From assembly GCA_041661605.1 (NCBI GenBank), contig JBAZUE010000001.1:287467-351466 (forward strand): 64,000 bases of DNA, written 5' to 3'. The translations under genes were made by a program, and so were the position numbers. Source of the DNA: Candidatus Omnitrophota bacterium. Its GTDB lineage: Bacteria > Omnitrophota > Gorgyraeia > Gygaellales > Profunditerraquicolaceae. Numbering within the stretch: position 1 is the stretch's first letter; every line of letters begins with the position of its first letter. Positions 32,471 to 52,712 of this stretch are shown here, in pieces. A model generated the notes under the pieces. The model ran no database searches. It was given only the letters and a program-made list of their open reading frames with translations, and was not told where the DNA came from.

Positions 32471-32498
32471 TTGACATTGTAACTTATAATATTATAAT
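32471..32498 (+). promoter_or_regulatory. sigma-70 promoter of the envelope lipoprotein cluster
   Basis: TTGACA 32471-32476, 16-nt spacer, TATAAT 32493-32498. Confidence 0.6.
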
Positions 32499-32536: not shown

Positions 32537-34066
32537 ATGCATCTTAGAGTGGGTAAGTTAATCCTCGCTACCCTTATCGTTTTTTCAATTACCTTTCCTG
32601 TTTTTGCTAAAGGAACTCAAAATTCCAATCCCGAAGAAGTAAAATACAGCCCAAAAAATCTGGTTGATGAAGACGCCATGCAGGCAGAGATGGATTTTTA
32701 TGCCGGTAATGACCATGAAGCAGAGTTGATCTTTAAGGGTTTGAAAGCAAAAAAAGATCACGATGTCGCGCTCTGGAGCAATCAATTGGGCTCCTTGTAT
32801 TTGACTCAGGGCAAAACCAAGGAAGCCGAAGAGTCTTTTATGGATGCCTATCTTGTGATGAATAATATCGCTGCTTTTAAGGATTTGGAATTACATTCTG
32901 TGGGGTTAATGGGAGCTGAGGCGACTAAGGCGTATAAAGGTGACCCCTACGAGAAAGTATTTAATTCTTTTTATGTAGGAATCCTTCTTTGTTCAAGTAA
33001 CGATTTTGAAAATGCGCTGGCTGCTTTTAAGAACGGAATCTTATGCGATTCCGATGTAGAATGTAATCTTTATAAGAGTGACGTAACCTTGCTCTATTTG
33101 ATGGCTTCCCGTCTTGAATCCCTTCAGAAAAACCAATCCCTGGCGGATGATTATTTTAAGCAGGCCAAAGAAGCCTTTAATCTTTCTTACCCGGATAACC
33201 GCCAGTTCGTCTCACAAGAACAGGGTTTATTGGATGATTTAACCAAGAAACAGAAAATTCTCTCTGATAAAGAAGCTCCGTATAAAAATGGGGCCGTGGC
33301 AGAAGCTGCCTCTCAGGGGCAAGGAAAGAATTCCGCTGGAGAAAAGAAGGCAAAGAAGATGCCTGCTAAAGAGGAAAAAGAAATTAATGTTTTAAAGTCA
33401 GATATCTCTAAACTTGAAGCTGATATTAAGGCGTTAGCGGATACGATAGAGGAAAATGGCCGTAAGATTGCAACAACAAGCCTAAATGATTTAGTTAATC
33501 TTAATAATAATACCTTGTTATGCATTGAAACAGGAAGGAGCCCGCTTAAATATCAGGTAGGCAACTATGGAGAAAAGGCGGTTTTTACTATAAAACCTTA
33601 TCGAAGCAGAGGATTTAGCGTTACTGTTGATAATTTTATCAAGATTAAAACGGAGAGTTTCCTTAAAAACAACGACGTTTATTATCAGGCTTCTACCCGT
33701 GGCGGCAGGGTTATGGACGGCATATTAAAAGGTAAGGCAGATTTTAAGAAGACGACCGCGGATGTTTCGAATTTACTTTCTAATGTGTCGCAGGTATATG
33801 ATCCTTACGGCGTATTATCGCTTTTTAGTTTAGCTGCGGGGGCTGTCAGTAACGCTACTAATCCTTATGCTGACGCTAGGCATTGGAGCTTACTGCCTGC
33901 GGAAATTCAGCTGGTCCCCATGCACTTAGATCCCGGGAAGCATAAGATACAAATTGATGCATATGATTCTGCTGGAAAAATAATTGAGAGTTATAAAACA
34001 GAGATTGAAATTACGGATATTCCTAATAACATTATTTTTAAACGATTCCGCGAGAAAACATTATAA
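32537..34066 (+). CDS. large secreted protein with TPR-like N-terminal region, function unknown
   Basis: ATG 32537 follows GGAG and lies downstream of the promoter; the track start 32513 (TTG) is less likely. Signal peptide ...FPVFA, TPR-like helices and a Lys/Glu-rich coiled segment. Confidence 0.6.
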   Translation: MHLRVGKLILATLIVFSITFPVFAKGTQNSNPEEVKYSPKNLVDEDAMQAEMDFYAGNDHEAELIFKGLKAKKDHDVALWSNQLGSLYLTQGKTKEAEESFMDAYLVMNNIAAFKDLELHSVGLMGAEATKAYKGDPYEKVFNSFYVGILLCSSNDFENALAAFKNGILCDSDVECNLYKSDVTLLYLMASRLESLQKNQSLADDYFKQAKEAFNLSYPDNRQFVSQEQGLLDDLTKKQKILSDKEAPYKNGAVAEAASQGQGKNSAGEKKAKKMPAKEEKEINVLKSDISKLEADIKALADTIEENGRKIATTSLNDLVNLNNNTLLCIETGRSPLKYQVGNYGEKAVFTIKPYRSRGFSVTVDNFIKIKTESFLKNNDVYYQASTRGGRVMDGILKGKADFKKTTADVSNLLSNVSQVYDPYGVLSLFSLAAGAVSNATNPYADARHWSLLPAEIQLVPMHLDPGKHKIQIDAYDSAGKIIESYKTEIEITDIPNNIIFKRFREKTL

Positions 34067-47958: not shown

Positions 47959-47988
47959 TTGACAAACCACACAAATGTGTGGTATATC
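47959..47988 (+). promoter_or_regulatory. lexA promoter with embedded palindromic operator
   Basis: TTGACA 47959-47964 and TGgTATATC (hexamer 47983-47988). The inverted repeat ACCACACA-AA-TGTGTGGT (47966-47983) fills the spacer. Confidence 0.65.
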
Positions 47989-47989
47989 T

Positions 47990-48598
47990 ATGCCCATGGA
48001 AGAGAAGCCGTATTTGACGCCAAAGCAGGAAAGGGTGCTTAATTTTATCCGAAAACGGGTAGGGGAGAGGCTCCCTCCTACAATCAGGGAAATAGGAGAG
48101 GAGCTGGGGTTTAAGTCCACCGGCACAGTAAGGGATTATTTAAAGGCTTTAATGCAGAAAGGTTTGGTGAGGCGTATGAATAATAAGTCCAGGGCAATTG
48201 AATTGACTGAACGGGCATCTTTTAAAATACCTATAATCGGCACCATAATGGCCGGTAAACCGAATTTGGCTTATGAAGAAATCCAGGGTTATGTTGATGC
48301 AGATGATTTGTTTCTTGGGCGTTTGGGATTTGACGATGTGTTCGCTTTAAGGGTTAAAGGTGACAGCATGATCGATGCCGGCATCCTTGATGGCGATGTC
48401 GCCATTATCAAGAAGCGCCCTAATGCCGACAATAACGATATAGTTGCCGCGTTATTGGATAATAATGAGGTTACTTTAAAAAGACTGCGTAATCGCGCTG
48501 GTAAGTTCCATCTGGAAGCCGCGAATGCAAATTACCCGCCAATTTTCGAAGAGTTTAAAGTTATCGGCAAGCTTATTACAGTAATCAGAAAATATTAA
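47990..48598 (+). CDS. lexA: LexA repressor
   Basis: LTPKQERVLNFI winged-helix N-terminus, AG cleavage site (IMAGKP), S24 peptidase GDSM...K. The track start 47975 lies inside the promoter, so the real start is 47990 or 47996. Confidence 0.9.
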   Translation: MPMEEKPYLTPKQERVLNFIRKRVGERLPPTIREIGEELGFKSTGTVRDYLKALMQKGLVRRMNNKSRAIELTERASFKIPIIGTIMAGKPNLAYEEIQGYVDADDLFLGRLGFDDVFALRVKGDSMIDAGILDGDVAIIKKRPNADNNDIVAALLDNNEVTLKRLRNRAGKFHLEAANANYPPIFEEFKVIGKLITVIRKY

Positions 48599-48609: not shown

Positions 48610-48918
48610 ATGAATCAGAATAGTTTTAGCCCTAAGGCCCGCTGGGACAGGTTTGAACCGGAAACACGCGGCTTTAATCCCGATGCCTTAAATGAGCGTA
48701 TCGAAGTTTTGGTTAATTTTAAACATGCCAGGATATTCCCTAAAAGTTTTGTCTGGCATGGCAAAGAATATGTCATCGATAATATTACTTATAATTGGCA
48801 GGAGCGCATTGGTCAGGCGTTGATCAATTACTTTTCCGTGCTTTGCGCAAACCAGATATACCAGATATCTTTTAATAATTCCACCTTCCGCTGGCAGATT
48901 GACAAACTTATACAATAA
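48610..48918 (+). CDS. hypothetical protein between lexA and dinB
   Basis: 102-aa ORF, co-directional and tightly spaced with lexA and dinB. I recognise no family. Confidence 0.5.
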   Translation: MNQNSFSPKARWDRFEPETRGFNPDALNERIEVLVNFKHARIFPKSFVWHGKEYVIDNITYNWQERIGQALINYFSVLCANQIYQISFNNSTFRWQIDKLIQ

Positions 48919-48945: not shown

Positions 48946-50049
48946 ATGATTTTACATGTTGATATGGATGCTTTTTTTGCTTCAATTGAAGAGGCAATTA
49001 ACCCCAGGCTTAAAGGCAAGCCTTTGATTGTCGGCTCGCGTGGCAATAGAATGCACACTGTAGTTTGCGCGGCCAATTATGCGGCTAAAGCCTTAGGCAT
49101 CCACTCCGGTATGCCTACCAGGAGAGCTTATAGTATTTACTCTAAGTTGGAATTTGTGGCAGCTGATCAAGCTAAATATATCTGGACTTCGGAGCAGATT
49201 TTCGAGCTTCTGAAGGGGTTTAAGTTCCCCTTAAACTATGCTTCAATTGATGAATTTCAGCTGGACCTTTCCGGCCACCTAAACCCGGTAAGTTTGGGTA
49301 AAGAAATTAAAACGCAGATATATGCAAACTTTAACATTAGCGCATCGGTGGGTATAGCTAAAAATTGGCTATTGGCTAAGCTGGCTTCCAAGCTAAATAA
49401 ACCGGATGGCTTAACCCTGATTGATGATTCAAACTTTGAACAAACTTTACGTAAAGCCAGCCTGGATAAGCTTTGCGGTATGGGTGGTAAAGGCGGCCAG
49501 ATTTTAATGGCTAAAGGGATAAAAACCTGCTGGGACTTATACCTAGACTTACCGGGATTTTTTAATAATAATCCCGGTAAGTTTGATGAAAATCCCGGTA
49601 AGTCTAGTGAAAAGCCTAAGTCGGTGAGCCATTCATATACCTTACCCAAAGATCAAATAAACCCCCAGGTTATCCAAGCCTGGGTCAGGCTTCTGTCTGA
49701 AATGGTTGCCACAAGGCTTAGGCAGCAAAATCTAACCAGCGCAACTGTTCATCTTTGGCTAAACGGCCCTGAAATTGGTGATTTTGGGGCTCAAAGAACC
49801 CACCAGACATCAACCAATGACGGCTATGAGATTTGCCAAAGAGCCTTTAAGATAATGTCAAAATCTTTCCTTAAGGAGCCCAAAATCCGGGCAATTGGGG
49901 TCACTTGCAGCGGCCTTTCTTGGAACAGCTATCAACCTCTACTTAGCGAAGAAATACGCAGAGAGGGGCTTATTCAGGCCCTGGATCGCATAAATAACCG
50001 CTTTGGGGAGGGGGTAATTTATCCCGCAATTACTGCTTTAACCCGCTAA
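48946..50049 (+). CDS. dinB: DNA polymerase IV (Y-family)
   Basis: ILHVDMDAFFASIE and SIDEFQLDLS catalytic motifs. Confidence 0.9.
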   Translation: MILHVDMDAFFASIEEAINPRLKGKPLIVGSRGNRMHTVVCAANYAAKALGIHSGMPTRRAYSIYSKLEFVAADQAKYIWTSEQIFELLKGFKFPLNYASIDEFQLDLSGHLNPVSLGKEIKTQIYANFNISASVGIAKNWLLAKLASKLNKPDGLTLIDDSNFEQTLRKASLDKLCGMGGKGGQILMAKGIKTCWDLYLDLPGFFNNNPGKFDENPGKSSEKPKSVSHSYTLPKDQINPQVIQAWVRLLSEMVATRLRQQNLTSATVHLWLNGPEIGDFGAQRTHQTSTNDGYEICQRAFKIMSKSFLKEPKIRAIGVTCSGLSWNSYQPLLSEEIRREGLIQALDRINNRFGEGVIYPAITALTR

Positions 50050-50262
50050 AAAATCTTCAATTAAACGTAAAAAATCCTTATAGCCGCATATATAAAGTTT
50101 CCTACAAGTGTTAAGCTTATAGAATAGCGGTAAGTTTAAGTAAAGAGGAAATGCCTTTTCCACAGTTTAAAAACAGCCTTAGATAACTCATTATCCCCTA
50201 TAGACTTATATATACTTACGCAAGATAAGGAAGTTAACATAAGATATATTATAGGAAGTTGC

Positions 50263-50290
50263 TTGACAAGGCCCAAGCTCACGCTATAAT
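50263..50290 (+). promoter_or_regulatory. consensus sigma-70 promoter facing the 3' end of the DUF134 gene
   Basis: TTGACA 50263-50268, 16-nt spacer, TATAAT 50285-50290. Confidence 0.6.
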
Positions 50291-50329
50291 GGTTTAAAGT
50301 AAAATTTTAATGGTTTATTGGAGGTTTAT

Positions 50330-50413
50330 ATGTTTTGGTTGGTGAGAATAGTTCAAATTACCCTGCTTTTTCTTCTGATTTTGTTTCCGTTGGCAGAGTA
50401 TTTTTTGTACTGA
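50330..50413 (+). CDS. 27-aa hydrophobic peptide (candidate small membrane peptide / type I toxin-like)
   Basis: GGAGG 50320-50324 lies 5 nt before the ATG. Own translation: MFWLVRIVQITLLFLLILFPLAEYFLY. Overlaps the 3' end of the convergent DUF134 gene by 56 nt. Confidence 0.4.
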   Translation: MFWLVRIVQITLLFLLILFPLAEYFLY

Positions 50414-50705
50414 TTATATACTGGCCGCCTTGTATTCTAATTAACGATCCGGTAGTTAACCCTTGGGCAATTAGTTTATGCGCCCTCCTAAGGATCCGAC
50501 TAAAGGTTTGTTGGGATATACGCATGGATTTAGCTGCCTCTTTCTGTGCCAAACCCTGATAATCTGCCAATCTTAAGGCCTCAAATTCGTCAATTTTAAG
50601 CTCCACTTCATCAGGCCTTCCTGGTTTGCCTCTGGGGCTAAATTGGCTGATTTTAGGGTCAATTTTGACTATTCTATATTTTCTGGGCCTTCCTCGAGGA
50701 CGCAT
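50358..50705 (-). CDS. DUF134 (UPF0251) predicted DNA-binding protein
   Basis: MRPRGRPRKYRIV N-terminus and sigma-70 region-4-like HTH (LAQKEAAKSMRISQQTFSRILRRA). Confidence 0.85.
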   Translation of the reverse strand: MRPRGRPRKYRIVKIDPKISQFSPRGKPGRPDEVELKIDEFEALRLADYQGLAQKEAAKSMRISQQTFSRILRRAHKLIAQGLTTGSLIRIQGGQYIISTKNTLPTETKSEEKAG

Positions 50706-50736
50706 TTACTTAGTTTTACCTACGTTTAACGCCGGG

Positions 50737-50789
50737 TTTATTATGAGTACCTACTCGCAGTCAATTGGTATTTATTATGGGTACTTACT
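50737..50789. repeat. two 19-nt direct repeats upstream of the DUF134 gene
   Basis: TTTATTATGAGTACCTACT (50737-50755) and TTTATTATGGGTACTTACT (50771-50789) match at 17 of 19 positions. Confidence 0.8.
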
Positions 50790-50839
50790 TATAAATGGTT
50801 ATTTTTTAGGGCCTGCTTGTGCTCAACAGGCCCTAAGAG

Positions 50840-51265
50840 TTATAATTTATAAACTTTATCGCCCTGCCTGACCCGGGAGCTGACTTGCAGCCCGATTTCA
50901 TCGCCTTTTTTGGCGCTCGAGATGTCTACCCGGTCTATTTGCATTGAGGTTATAATTTGAGTAAGATCAGTGGTATGTCCCTTTATCTTTACTGTATTAC
51001 CCATTACCAAAGGTTCTTTTAATTTAATTACCGCGGCTTGTACATGAGGAAAATAATGTGTGATTAAACCAACAAGTTTCCCCTCCTGCTTCTTAACCGA
51101 TTTCTTTGATACAGCTCTTTTTTTAGCTGCCCCTTTCTTAATCGGGAGTTTTTTAGGCGTCTTTTTTACTGTTTTTTTGACCCCTTTTTTAGCCGCTTTC
51201 TTGACTTTTTTCCCTTGTGGTTTGCGCAAGGATTTGCGGGTGCTCAACTTTTTTTTCAAAGCCAT
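50840..51265 (-). CDS. Lys/Ala-rich (histone H1-like tail) protein with C-terminal EF-Tu domain-2-like beta-barrel
   Basis: About 55 N-terminal residues of KKxxKK repeats, then GLITHYFPHVQAAVIKL...GDEIGLQV. Confidence 0.55.
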   Translation of the reverse strand: MALKKKLSTRKSLRKPQGKKVKKAAKKGVKKTVKKTPKKLPIKKGAAKKRAVSKKSVKKQEGKLVGLITHYFPHVQAAVIKLKEPLVMGNTVKIKGHTTDLTQIITSMQIDRVDISSAKKGDEIGLQVSSRVRQGDKVYKL

Positions 51266-51288
51266 GGCGACACCTCCTTTTACAGAGT

Positions 51289-51615
51289 TTAAAGGATTAC
51301 CTCTTCAGATATTGCGGTTATAACCGGTATGCGGCAATATATGCCTAAGGCAGCCTGCATAATACCCCAGATGGAGATTAAGAAAAATAAAGCGTAGCCG
51401 AATACTCCGATTAACCAGCCTAACAAAGGTATTATCGATAGTATAAAAGCCGTAACTTCCATGACGAAAAGTACCAGGCCCTGTTTGGCATGGTAAAGAG
51501 CGAATTTGTTGTCCTTTTTTAGAATCAGGGTAATAATACAAAGGAAACAAACATATGAAATTATGGCGAAGAATTTACCTTCGCGTATTATATTTTCATT
51601 TTCCGGGTTTTCCAT
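51289..51615 (-). CDS. DUF4870 domain membrane protein
   Basis: FAIISYVCFLCIITLILKKDNKFALYHAKQGLVL signature and 3 TM helices. Confidence 0.7.
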   Translation of the reverse strand: MENPENENIIREGKFFAIISYVCFLCIITLILKKDNKFALYHAKQGLVLFVMEVTAFILSIIPLLGWLIGVFGYALFFLISIWGIMQAALGIYCRIPVITAISEEVIL

Positions 51616-51620
51616 TTATC

Positions 51621-52712
51621 TTATTTTTTAATTTCGAGCAAAGAATCCATAGTCCCGTACGGGTTTACCTGCTTTAACGGGTTGCCGGGGTCTTCGGACC
51701 AGTTCCCGTCAATTACAAAACGATACCGGTATTTGCCGTTGTTGAGGTTTATACTTTTAGTCCAACTGCCGTTATTCTGAGTCATGCGGCTATTTTCATC
51801 CAGTTTCCAGTTATTGAATTCACCGGCAAGGTAAACTTCTCTTGCATCCGGGGCTTTAACTGTAAGCGTGATTTCGTTTAATTTTGGAAGGGTTTCTTTT
51901 AAGATCTCTTTCATGCGTTTTTCCAGGCTTTTCTCGGTAACCTGTCCGGCAGGAGCATTTTCCTGGGTAATGATTTCCCGCGAAAGACTGAAATAATCTT
52001 TTGCTCCGCGGCAGTATTTATCATAGTTAAATACGTGCAGGCCTTCGTTCTGGGCTTCCTTCAATTTCACGTTTACATGAATAATATTAGAAAACATCTT
52101 ATTTTTGTAATCAGTTTTAATTTTATCAAGCATCTTAAATGAATGCTGAAGGCGTGAATCAAAATTAGTGACTAAAACATGAAAATCAACTTCATGATTT
52201 AATCTCTCTTTGACCAGGTTGACAATGCTGGTTAATTGGCTTAAGCCTTCCAGGGAAAACCTGCTGGCTTCAACCGGTATTATTATTTCGCTTGCTGAAC
52301 GAATAGCGTTAATGGTTAAAATTCCCAGGTTCGGCGGGCAGTCAATTAAGATATAGTCGTAGTTATTTCTAAATGCAGTCAGGGTATCGCGCAGCCGGCT
52401 TTCCCGGCCGATTTCGCCGCTTAGTTCTTGTTCCAAAGTGCTCAGGATCAAGCTGGATGGCGCGATATCAAAATTCTCGCCTAAATTCTGGATGATTTCT
52501 TCCAGCTGGCATTTTTTATGCGTGATTTTGGAAAGTACATTATAAATACTTAAATCGGCTTTTATATTCAGGCCGCTGGTCGCATGCGCTTGCGGGTCAA
52601 GGTCAATAAGCAGGACTTTGCGGTTATTAGACGCTAAAGCAGCCGCTAAATTTATGGATGTAGTTGTTTTGCCGCAGCCGCCTTTTTGATTAGCGATTGA
52701 TATAATGCGCAT
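51621..52712 (-). CDS. ParA/Soj-type ATPase fused to a C-terminal CBM48 (AMPK-beta type) glycogen-binding domain
   Basis: Deviant Walker A NQKGGCGKTT and IDCPP. C-terminal EVYLAGEFNNWKLD...GKYRYRFVIDGNWSEDPGNP matches the CBM48/AMPK1_CBM pattern. Confidence 0.8.
   Translation of the reverse strand: MRIISIANQKGGCGKTTTSINLAAALASNNRKVLLIDLDPQAHATSGLNIKADLSIYNVLSKITHKKCQLEEIIQNLGENFDIAPSSLILSTLEQELSGEIGRESRLRDTLTAFRNNYDYILIDCPPNLGILTINAIRSASEIIIPVEASRFSLEGLSQLTSIVNLVKERLNHEVDFHVLVTNFDSRLQHSFKMLDKIKTDYKNKMFSNIIHVNVKLKEAQNEGLHVFNYDKYCRGAKDYFSLSREIITQENAPAGQVTEKSLEKRMKEILKETLPKLNEITLTVKAPDAREVYLAGEFNNWKLDENSRMTQNNGSWTKSINLNNGKYRYRFVIDGNWSEDPGNPLKQVNPYGTMDSLLEIKK

Follow-up and report, generated by a model that had tools for sequence, protein, structure and literature searches.

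Type I toxin-antitoxin systems with a convergent 3′ overlap include txpA/RatA and bsrG/SR4 of Bacillus subtilis, and small hydrophobic toxins are also known from Escherichia coli (Ibs, TisB, and ShoB). The mRNAs of known type I toxins are translationally locked. Other small membrane proteins, such as MgtS, AcrZ, and KdpF, modulate larger ones, and the 29-amino-acid (aa) protein SidA of Caulobacter is a division inhibitor. Here we describe a candidate small membrane-peptide gene, antisense to the end of a gene of the DUF134 family, in a 64,000-nucleotide (nt) stretch of DNA from a Candidatus Omnitrophota bacterium (contig JBAZUE010000001.1 of assembly GCA_041661605.1; hereafter the window, whose positions are used throughout). 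Its promoter begins beside a 28-bp site that we identify as dif, the site of chromosome-dimer resolution by XerC and XerD.

With the type I systems (txpA/RatA, bsrG/SR4, Ibs, TisB, and ShoB) this locus shares a peptide in the range of 19 to 35 aa, one hydrophobic helix, and a patchy distribution. As in txpA/RatA and bsrG/SR4, the 3′ end of the mRNA would be complementary to a convergent transcript, if it is transcribed. It differs from them in that its partner is an mRNA that encodes a protein, not a dedicated small RNA, the leader is unstructured, the expression signals are of consensus strength, and the peptide does not belong by sequence to the Hok, Ldr, TisB, Ibs, ShoB, Fst, or TxpA/BsrG families. 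What it shares with MgtS, AcrZ, KdpF, and SidA is a length of 25 to 30 aa, a single transmembrane helix, a basic N terminus, its own Shine-Dalgarno (SD) sequence and ATG, and the usual lack of annotation; in contrast to these proteins, it has no homology, no operon with a membrane complex, and no LexA-type operator, and it lies antisense to the tail of a gene. As in de novo overprinted antisense genes, its core is the complement of a Lys/Glu/Thr-rich tail, its stop codon is fixed by codons of the partner, and near-promoters pre-exist in loci lacking the open reading frame (ORF), but here a young gene has full consensus signals and recurs in several lineages. Judged by these likenesses, the peptide resembles a small single-pass membrane protein, could act as a 3′-overlap type I toxin, and appears to be a member of no described family. 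The dif site is like those of the B. subtilis and E. coli chromosomes in its 28 bp, its 11-6-11 architecture, its single copy at the switch of gene strand and base skew, and arms that are invariant in relatives. It differs in that a DUF134 gene and a conserved 180-nt flank with an oriented array of 18-nt motifs are tightly linked to it, and in having, in some lineages, a consensus promoter 0 to 3 nt from the XerC arm.

RESULTS

A consensus promoter and ribosome-binding site precede a 27-codon ORF antisense to the DUF134 gene

The preliminary description of this locus had reported a TTGACA-N16-TATAAT promoter, a GGAGG followed 5 nt later by an ATG, and a 27-aa hydrophobic frame overlapping the 3′ end of a convergent DUF134 gene by 56 nt. 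All of these elements were present at the positions reported:

50263-50290, plus strand: sigma-70-type promoter with TTGACA (50263-50268), a 16-nt spacer, and TATAAT (50285-50290), a 12/12 match to the consensus

50320-50324, plus strand: SD sequence GGAGG, 5 nt (TTTAT) before the ATG at 50330

50330-50413, plus strand: ORF of 27 codons and a stop (TGA, ending at 50413), encoding MFWLVRIVQITLLFLLILFPLAEYFLY

50358-50705, minus strand: DUF134 (PF02001) gene for a small helix-turn-helix protein (Pfam E value of 1.7e-25, residues 1 to 98 of 115)

50358-50413, both strands: overlap of the peptide ORF with the DUF134 gene, 56 nt, spanning the last 18 DUF134 codons and the stop, with the frames offset by one base

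Exact TTGACA-N16-18-TATAAT sequences were found at two sites in the 64 kb versus none in 100 shuffles, and the promoter at 50263 was the sole 12/12 site in the 12 kb scanned. The other exact site, at 32471-32498, precedes a gene (start near 32538) that has its own ribosome-binding site and encodes a 517-aa, signal peptide-like protein, which shows that genuine genes of this organism use the E. coli-type consensus. At the peptide promoter, transcription would start near 50297, leaving a leader of 33 nt before the ORF, and the AT-rich dif site occupies the position of an UP element. The RNA from 50297 to 50440 folded with -23.7 kcal/mol and a z score of 0.12 against shuffles, i.e., with no unusual structure and with the SD sequence not hidden, which ruled out a structured leader of the toxin type. 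No plus-strand terminator was found 3′ of the peptide ORF. Unlike the lexA promoter, the peptide promoter showed no LexA-box-like palindrome; SOS control of the peptide was rejected, as nothing resembling the lexA palindrome CCACACAAATGTGTGG was found near 50263.

The encoded peptide has a grand average of hydropathy (GRAVY) of 1.85 and consists of an N-terminal region with a basic residue (R6), one predicted hydrophobic helix, and a C-terminal tail set by the DUF134 codons of the opposite strand. In the ORF list, the same frame is given from an upstream TTG start (50318-50413). Searches of Pfam, NCBIfam, and PHROGs with seven members of the peptide family described below gave no match past any threshold. 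An exhaustive search with the 31-aa TTG-extended peptide found no match among 1.84 billion protein representatives, a weak negative given the short query and the length cut-offs of gene callers.

The overlap lies in the nondomain C-terminal tail of the DUF134 protein, since the PF02001 match covers only residues 1 to 98. The stop codon of the peptide is fixed by conserved Ile-Ser codons of DUF134 (ATC AGT), its last residues are fixed by the ISSR codons, and its hydrophobic core is the complement of the A-rich, Lys/Glu/Thr-rich disordered tail, so that the gene most likely arose by overprinting. The two transcripts, said in the preliminary description to be necessarily complementary, would be so over the 56 nt if both genes are transcribed. 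We found no minus-strand promoter with a match of at least 9/12 inside or just beyond the overlap, nor any strong terminator between the DUF134 stop and dif in the window.

The promoter-peptide module recurs in a subset of related loci

Conservation of the peptide ORF and its promoter beside DUF134 genes had been set beforehand as one test of the gene. We collected 67 genome loci and 80 metagenome loci with a DUF134 gene, which were reduced to 98 distinct sequences, and searched them for an ATG-initiated ORF of 22 to 29 aa with a GRAVY of 1.7 or more, reading antisense to DUF134 and in frame with the stop that its Ile-Ser codons impose. Such an ORF was carried by 12 of the 98, and in most of the others the frame was closed within a few codons. 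The ORF-bearing loci were as follows:

the window, L002 (same contig as L069), L017, L082, L102, L091, L095, L093, L118, L058, L042, and L148 (with L037)

Two more loci hold a truncated copy (L113) and a partial copy (L020) of the peptide. Examples of the homologous peptides are MLLWLVRIVQIILFFLLVLFPLAEYFLS, MVKFLRLVVIILILLLVLFPALNPGGN, and MLKRLLIVIIVLVFLLILFPLLRLGVN.

The 12 hydrophobic ATG-initiated ORFs in the fixed frame compare with 1.13 expected from shuffled spacers (maximum of 4 in 300 trials), and 7 of them had an SD sequence matching GGAGG at 4/5 positions or more, against an expectation of 0.14. A promoter of at least 10/12 was present in 6/12 ORF-bearing loci versus 1/86 ORF-less loci (Fisher P = 5.8e-6). 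The overlap with DUF134 was 50 to 80 nt in all 12 loci. The first 8 to 12 codons lie outside DUF134, in an otherwise unalignable spacer, and there the ATG, the open frame, and the hydrophobic residues were kept, with a Lys or Arg among these codons in 11/12 loci. Run against about 1 Mb of six-frame ORFs drawn from the window and every locus, a profile hidden Markov model (HMM) built from the 12 peptides matched at no position but this one, and it also recovered the copies in L113 and L020, which were both outside the training set.

The promoter of L002/L069 is identical to that of the window except for one spacer base. Between the window and L002, the stretch from promoter to ATG is 91% identical, compared with 71% for the third codon positions of DUF134, and an in-frame indel of 3 nt, located outside DUF134, distinguishes the two peptide ORFs. 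In L091, L093, L095, and L118, promoters of 10/12 adjoin dif; in these four and L102, the first T of the -35 element (TTGAC[CT] or TTGGCA) is the last base of dif. In a neighbor-joining tree, the ORF-bearing loci were scattered among the ORF-less loci, indicating an accessory gene that has been lost or gained repeatedly. Near-promoters, such as TACACC-N17-TAAAAT, are already present in ORF-less loci. These loci also have, in the spacer, an A/T-run and a small hairpin whose stem shows compensatory changes (CGCC/GGCG in L009 versus CGGC/GCCG in L022), and this hairpin is absent from the window.

The peptide promoter adjoins dif at the replication terminus

The earlier account of the gap between dinB and DUF134 was incomplete, having overlooked a dif site, the terminus, and a conserved flank. 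The features that define this setting are as follows:

48946-50049, plus strand: dinB, encoding a Y-family DNA polymerase (Pfam IMS and IMS_C), the last plus-strand gene before the terminus

50232-50259, minus strand: dif, the 28-bp XerC/XerD chromosome-dimer resolution site, identified by similarity to reference dif sites and by its terminus position

The gap extends for 308 nt from the dinB stop to the DUF134 stop, with a GC content of 0.33 to 0.36. Up to 50049, the ORFs of 150 aa or longer lie on the plus strand, with four exceptions; from 51621 on, every ORF of this size lies on the minus strand, as do DUF134 and its neighbors at 50358-51615. To the left of the gap the GC skew is +0.142, versus -0.021 to the right, and the cumulative AT skew peaks at 50304. 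Gene orientation and base skews thus both reverse at the gap, which is the replication terminus of this Candidatus Omnitrophota chromosome. The naming of dinB in the preliminary description agreed with its Pfam matches.

On the minus strand, the 28-mer reads ACTTCCTATAA-TATATC-TTATGTTAACT, and the invariant block reads ACTTCCTATAATATATCTTATGTTAACT. It is divided 11-6-11 into a XerC-type arm (50259-50249), a center (50248-50243), and a XerD-type arm (50242-50232). It is identical at 25/28 positions to the B. subtilis dif, ACTTCCTAGAATATATATTATGTAAACT, and at 19/28 positions to that of E. coli, whose XerD arm it matches at 10/11 (reference dif sites taken from PMC3025954). Even with up to 3 mismatches allowed, the site was found only once in the 64 kb. 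When the gap was compared by blastn with 67 regions downstream of DUF134, this block of about 30 nt was invariant in relatives even where DUF134 identity was about 50%, and in most loci whose downstream sequence was long enough, the same 28-mer lies 11 to 115 nt past the stop of DUF134. Substitutions among the genome loci fell nearly all in the central 6 bp, with the arms conserved, as expected for a Xer site. By these sequence features, the site at 50232-50259 is the Omnitrophota dif, with Xer recombination activity itself predicted. In the window, its end on the XerC-arm side is 3 nt from the -35 hexamer of the peptide promoter. A crude search of the 64-kb window for a tyrosine-recombinase motif found none; Xer genes are usually encoded elsewhere in the genome.

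The dif site also holds a TATAAT on the minus strand, considered as the -10 element of a possible minus-strand promoter, with a conserved TTTnCC 16 nt upstream that matches the -35 consensus at only 2 to 4 of 6 positions across loci. Insertions of 370 to 1,180 nt separate DUF134 from a dif-like site in three loci (L018, 3227-4432; L016, 4315-4709; and L059, 4327-5304). The dif-like sites of these loci carry a differing XerC arm, TTATATCCACT or TTATGGGCACT. Encoded in the inserts are a helix-turn-helix protein of 100 aa and a LAGLIDADG endonuclease-like protein of about 196 aa. These inserts may be Xer-integrated elements, and it is a lead only that accessory genes may use the XerC side of dif as a landing pad. 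Twenty-four IMG/VR contigs classed as viral (L149 to L172) contain AGTTAACATAA-N6-TTATAGGAAGT with varied centers, often near the contig end, and these may be dif-mimicking phage attachment sites or prophage borders at dif. DUF134, the conserved flank, and the peptide are absent from all 24 of these dif-armed contigs, and we thus rejected the idea that the peptide module is cargo of a phage or of a Xer-integrating element.

Sequence identity around dif (48946-50839) forms a mosaic. The dinB gene of the window is 97% identical to that of L002 and 92.5% identical to that of L003, and the region upstream of DUF134 is 99% identical to L003 and 88% identical to L002. This pattern indicates, at the level of sequence, that recombination probably took place at or near the terminus. 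The operon that ends in dinB has the order lexA, a weak sub-threshold match to DUF6504 (48610-48918), and dinB. Its lexA promoter, TTGACA-N17-GTATAT (47959-47990), encloses the perfect palindrome given above (47967-47982), a candidate LexA box of this lineage, distinct from the consensus boxes of E. coli and of Gram-positive bacteria.

A conserved flank and an oriented motif array accompany dif and DUF134

On the XerD side of dif, about 210 nt (50050-50260) showed 72 to 87% DNA identity in many genomes by blastn. The elements found on this side are as follows:

50053-50231, no strand assigned: conserved noncoding flank, containing GCGGTAAGTTTAAGTAAA (50127-50144) and the DnaA-box-like TTTTCCACA (50156-50164)

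50066-50105, minus strand: terminator-like hairpin followed by U6 (-9.7 kcal/mol, z score of -2.4), facing the DUF134/dif side

49285-49302, plus strand: 18-nt motif

49538-49555, minus strand: 18-nt motif

49574-49591, plus strand: 18-nt motif

49595-49612, plus strand: 18-nt motif

50127-50144, plus strand: 18-nt motif

The flank was rejected as a structured RNA. RNAalifold with 44 sequences gave -5.6 and -10.3 kcal/mol on the two strands, i.e., no consensus structure, and single sequences folded no better than shuffles (z scores of -0.83 and -0.29). Long-range GTAAGT/ACTTAC pairing in the flank, inspected by hand, showed no covariation. Neither tRNA nor tmRNA was found near the gap, and Rfam at an E value of ≤10 returned for 49000-52000 only sub-threshold microRNA matches, which are spurious and due to a long imperfect hairpin in dinB (49530-49616). 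This hairpin is formed by inverted copies of the 18-nt motif and encodes a low-complexity insert, NPGKFDENPGKSSEKP. The terminator-like hairpin at 50066-50105 with its U6 implies a minus-strand transcript across dif, and hairpins of differing sequence adjoin the same U-run in many relatives. The DnaA-box-like sequence has a fixed position about 75 nt from dif, where it is unexpected at a terminus, and it takes the form of the exact consensus TTATCCACA in L018, L019, L026, L054, L055, and L059.

Five copies of the 18-nt motif, CCGGTAAGTyTrrkTrAA, lie in a span of 950 nt to the XerD side of dif, and there are none elsewhere in the 64 kb. At up to 3 mismatches there were 7 matches versus 0.43 expected, five of them good. 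Four copies lie inside the coding sequence of dinB, in two different reading frames. The offsets of the motif copies from dif (-105, -640, -660, -696, -948, and sometimes -1320) recur in over 20 genomes. Directly before the ATG of DUF134, at about 50706-50725 on the minus strand, is a looser copy in inverted orientation, so that the motif copies converge on dif. Judged from sequence, these motifs may be operators of DUF134, or Ter-like or accessory sites.

The linkage of DUF134 with dif is kept across the sampled Omnitrophota, even at a protein identity of 52 to 60%. The upstream region of DUF134 (about 50730-50800) is highly conserved and contains the palindrome ATGAGTAGGTACTCAT and the direct repeat AGTArGTACyCATAATAAA, which look like an operator for a dimeric regulator. 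The DUF134 ATG is not preceded by a canonical GGAGG. No sequence relatives of DUF134 were found in the PDB, and literature searches on DUF134 and on Omnitrophota with XerD returned nothing relevant. We regard it as a lead, not a conclusion, that DUF134 may be a terminus-associated DNA-binding protein, with CCGGTAAGTTTRRKTAAA and the palindrome ATGAGTAGGTACTCAT as candidate DNA targets.

DISCUSSION

With modest confidence, we read this locus as a real, unannotated, patchily kept accessory gene for a small membrane peptide, overprinted antisense to the tail of DUF134 and placed beside dif. RNA polymerase with the housekeeping sigma factor would start at the consensus promoter 3 nt past the XerC arm of dif, and the 33-nt unstructured leader would offer its GGAGG to the ribosome. 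The 27-residue peptide would enter the membrane as one helix and keep its basic N terminus on the cytoplasmic side. Given their convergent, overlapping layout, the two genes would be bound to interfere with each other in transcription and at the RNA level, through polymerase collision and through an RNA duplex with DUF134 of at least 56 bp, and a protein bound at dif could hinder the peptide promoter. The transcription, translation, membrane insertion, interference, and cellular role of the peptide are what we infer from this arrangement. Its role would most likely be to modulate some other component of the membrane as a benign small protein, not to act as a toxin.

Several observations weigh against this reading. 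No such module is present in the nearest relatives (L003, L072/73, L014, and L004), and the gene is thus dispensable; in L003, whose DUF134 is 97% identical, there is a 9/12 promoter and a deletion of about 30 nt that destroys the ORF. Four to six of the ORF-bearing loci have weak promoters (6 to 9 of 12). Hydrophobic codons come at no cost from the T-rich antisense of an A-rich tail, and the peptides resemble one another partly through an LFP motif that mirrors the "ET" motif of the DUF134 tail. Since the loci share ancestry, they are less independent than the Fisher and shuffle statistics imply. This shared ancestry, the lack of the module in near relatives, and the scatter of ORF-bearing loci in the tree also speak against strong selection. 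In addition, the conservation between the window and L002 could reflect recent recombination, given the identity mosaic around dif.

A type I-like system, to which the preliminary description had likened the locus, would consist of a membrane-damaging peptide silenced by the 3′ part of the DUF134 mRNA or by its read-through across dif. We consider this unlikely, although parts of the likeness stood: the peptide is small, strongly hydrophobic, and basic at its N terminus, the convergent overlap of 50 to 80 nt is kept in all 12 ORF-bearing loci, and the distribution is patchy, as for an accessory gene. With no strong terminator before dif and the minus-strand hairpin at 50066-50105 beyond it, read-through from DUF134 could even cover the whole peptide mRNA, including its SD sequence. 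For the remainder of the likeness we found no support: the peptide matched no toxin family in Pfam, NCBIfam, or PHROGs, no dedicated antisense promoter of at least 9/12 was found in the overlap, and the RNA of leader and ORF was not more structured than shuffles. An unprotected toxin with a 12/12 promoter and a GGAGG would be hard to tolerate, the opposite of the restraint of known type I systems. Also speaking against a toxin are the single copy per locus, with no second one in the 64-kb window or in the available flanks of related loci, and the lack of a LexA-box-like palindrome at the promoter.

Somewhat less probable still is a function of the promoter only, in which strong convergent transcription from beside dif would lower DUF134 expression, by antisense or collision, or shield dif from read-through, with the ORF being incidental; the promoter would then stand in for the small hairpin found there in most relatives. 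The promoter does face DUF134 with no plus-strand terminator after the ORF, and the spacer hairpin with its compensatory stem changes is found in ORF-less loci and not in the window. However, this would leave unexplained the co-occurrence of SD sequence and ATG, the narrow length range, the basic N terminus, and the hydrophobic frame outside DUF134, and several ORF-bearing loci have just weak promoters.

We regard as improbable a neutral by-product, i.e., chance promoter-like and ORF-like sequences, neither expressed nor selected, in a spacer that is AT-rich and prone to insertions. Phe, Leu, and Ile abound automatically in the antisense of a Lys/Glu-rich tail, the ORF is lacking in 86/98 relatives, and the spacer beside dif is highly variable and takes insertions. 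Chance does not readily account for an exact consensus promoter, expected 0 times in 64 kb, for the excess of ORFs (12 versus 1.1 expected; 7 versus 0.14 with an SD sequence) and their association with promoters (P = 5.8e-6), or for a conservation of the window-L002 module that exceeds the level of synonymous sites. Very improbable, in our judgment, is a dif-gated promoter, in which XerC/XerD at dif, or synapsed with FtsK, would switch the peptide promoter off or on and so couple the peptide, perhaps a brake on division or envelope synthesis, to termination or dimer resolution, with DUF134 perhaps as a counter-regulator binding the 18-nt array.

The position against dif is the unusual feature of the peptide gene, which, on the reading that we favor, is otherwise an unannotated small membrane-protein gene in a cis-antisense pair; we know of no described case of a consensus promoter starting at the XerC-arm edge of dif. 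If expressed, the gene would represent an unannotated family of membrane proteins of 22 to 29 residues in an uncultivated phylum and a clear example of a gene born antisense to the disordered tail of another gene, and the locus could show whether occupancy of dif controls a neighboring gene. The surrounding dif/DUF134 result may matter more than the peptide. The dif of Omnitrophota is now defined and is linked, in the sampled genomes, to a DUF134 gene and an oriented array of 18-nt motifs. To our knowledge, the DUF134 family has no known function, and this linkage gives it a testable hypothesis, namely, that of a terminus-associated DNA-binding protein.

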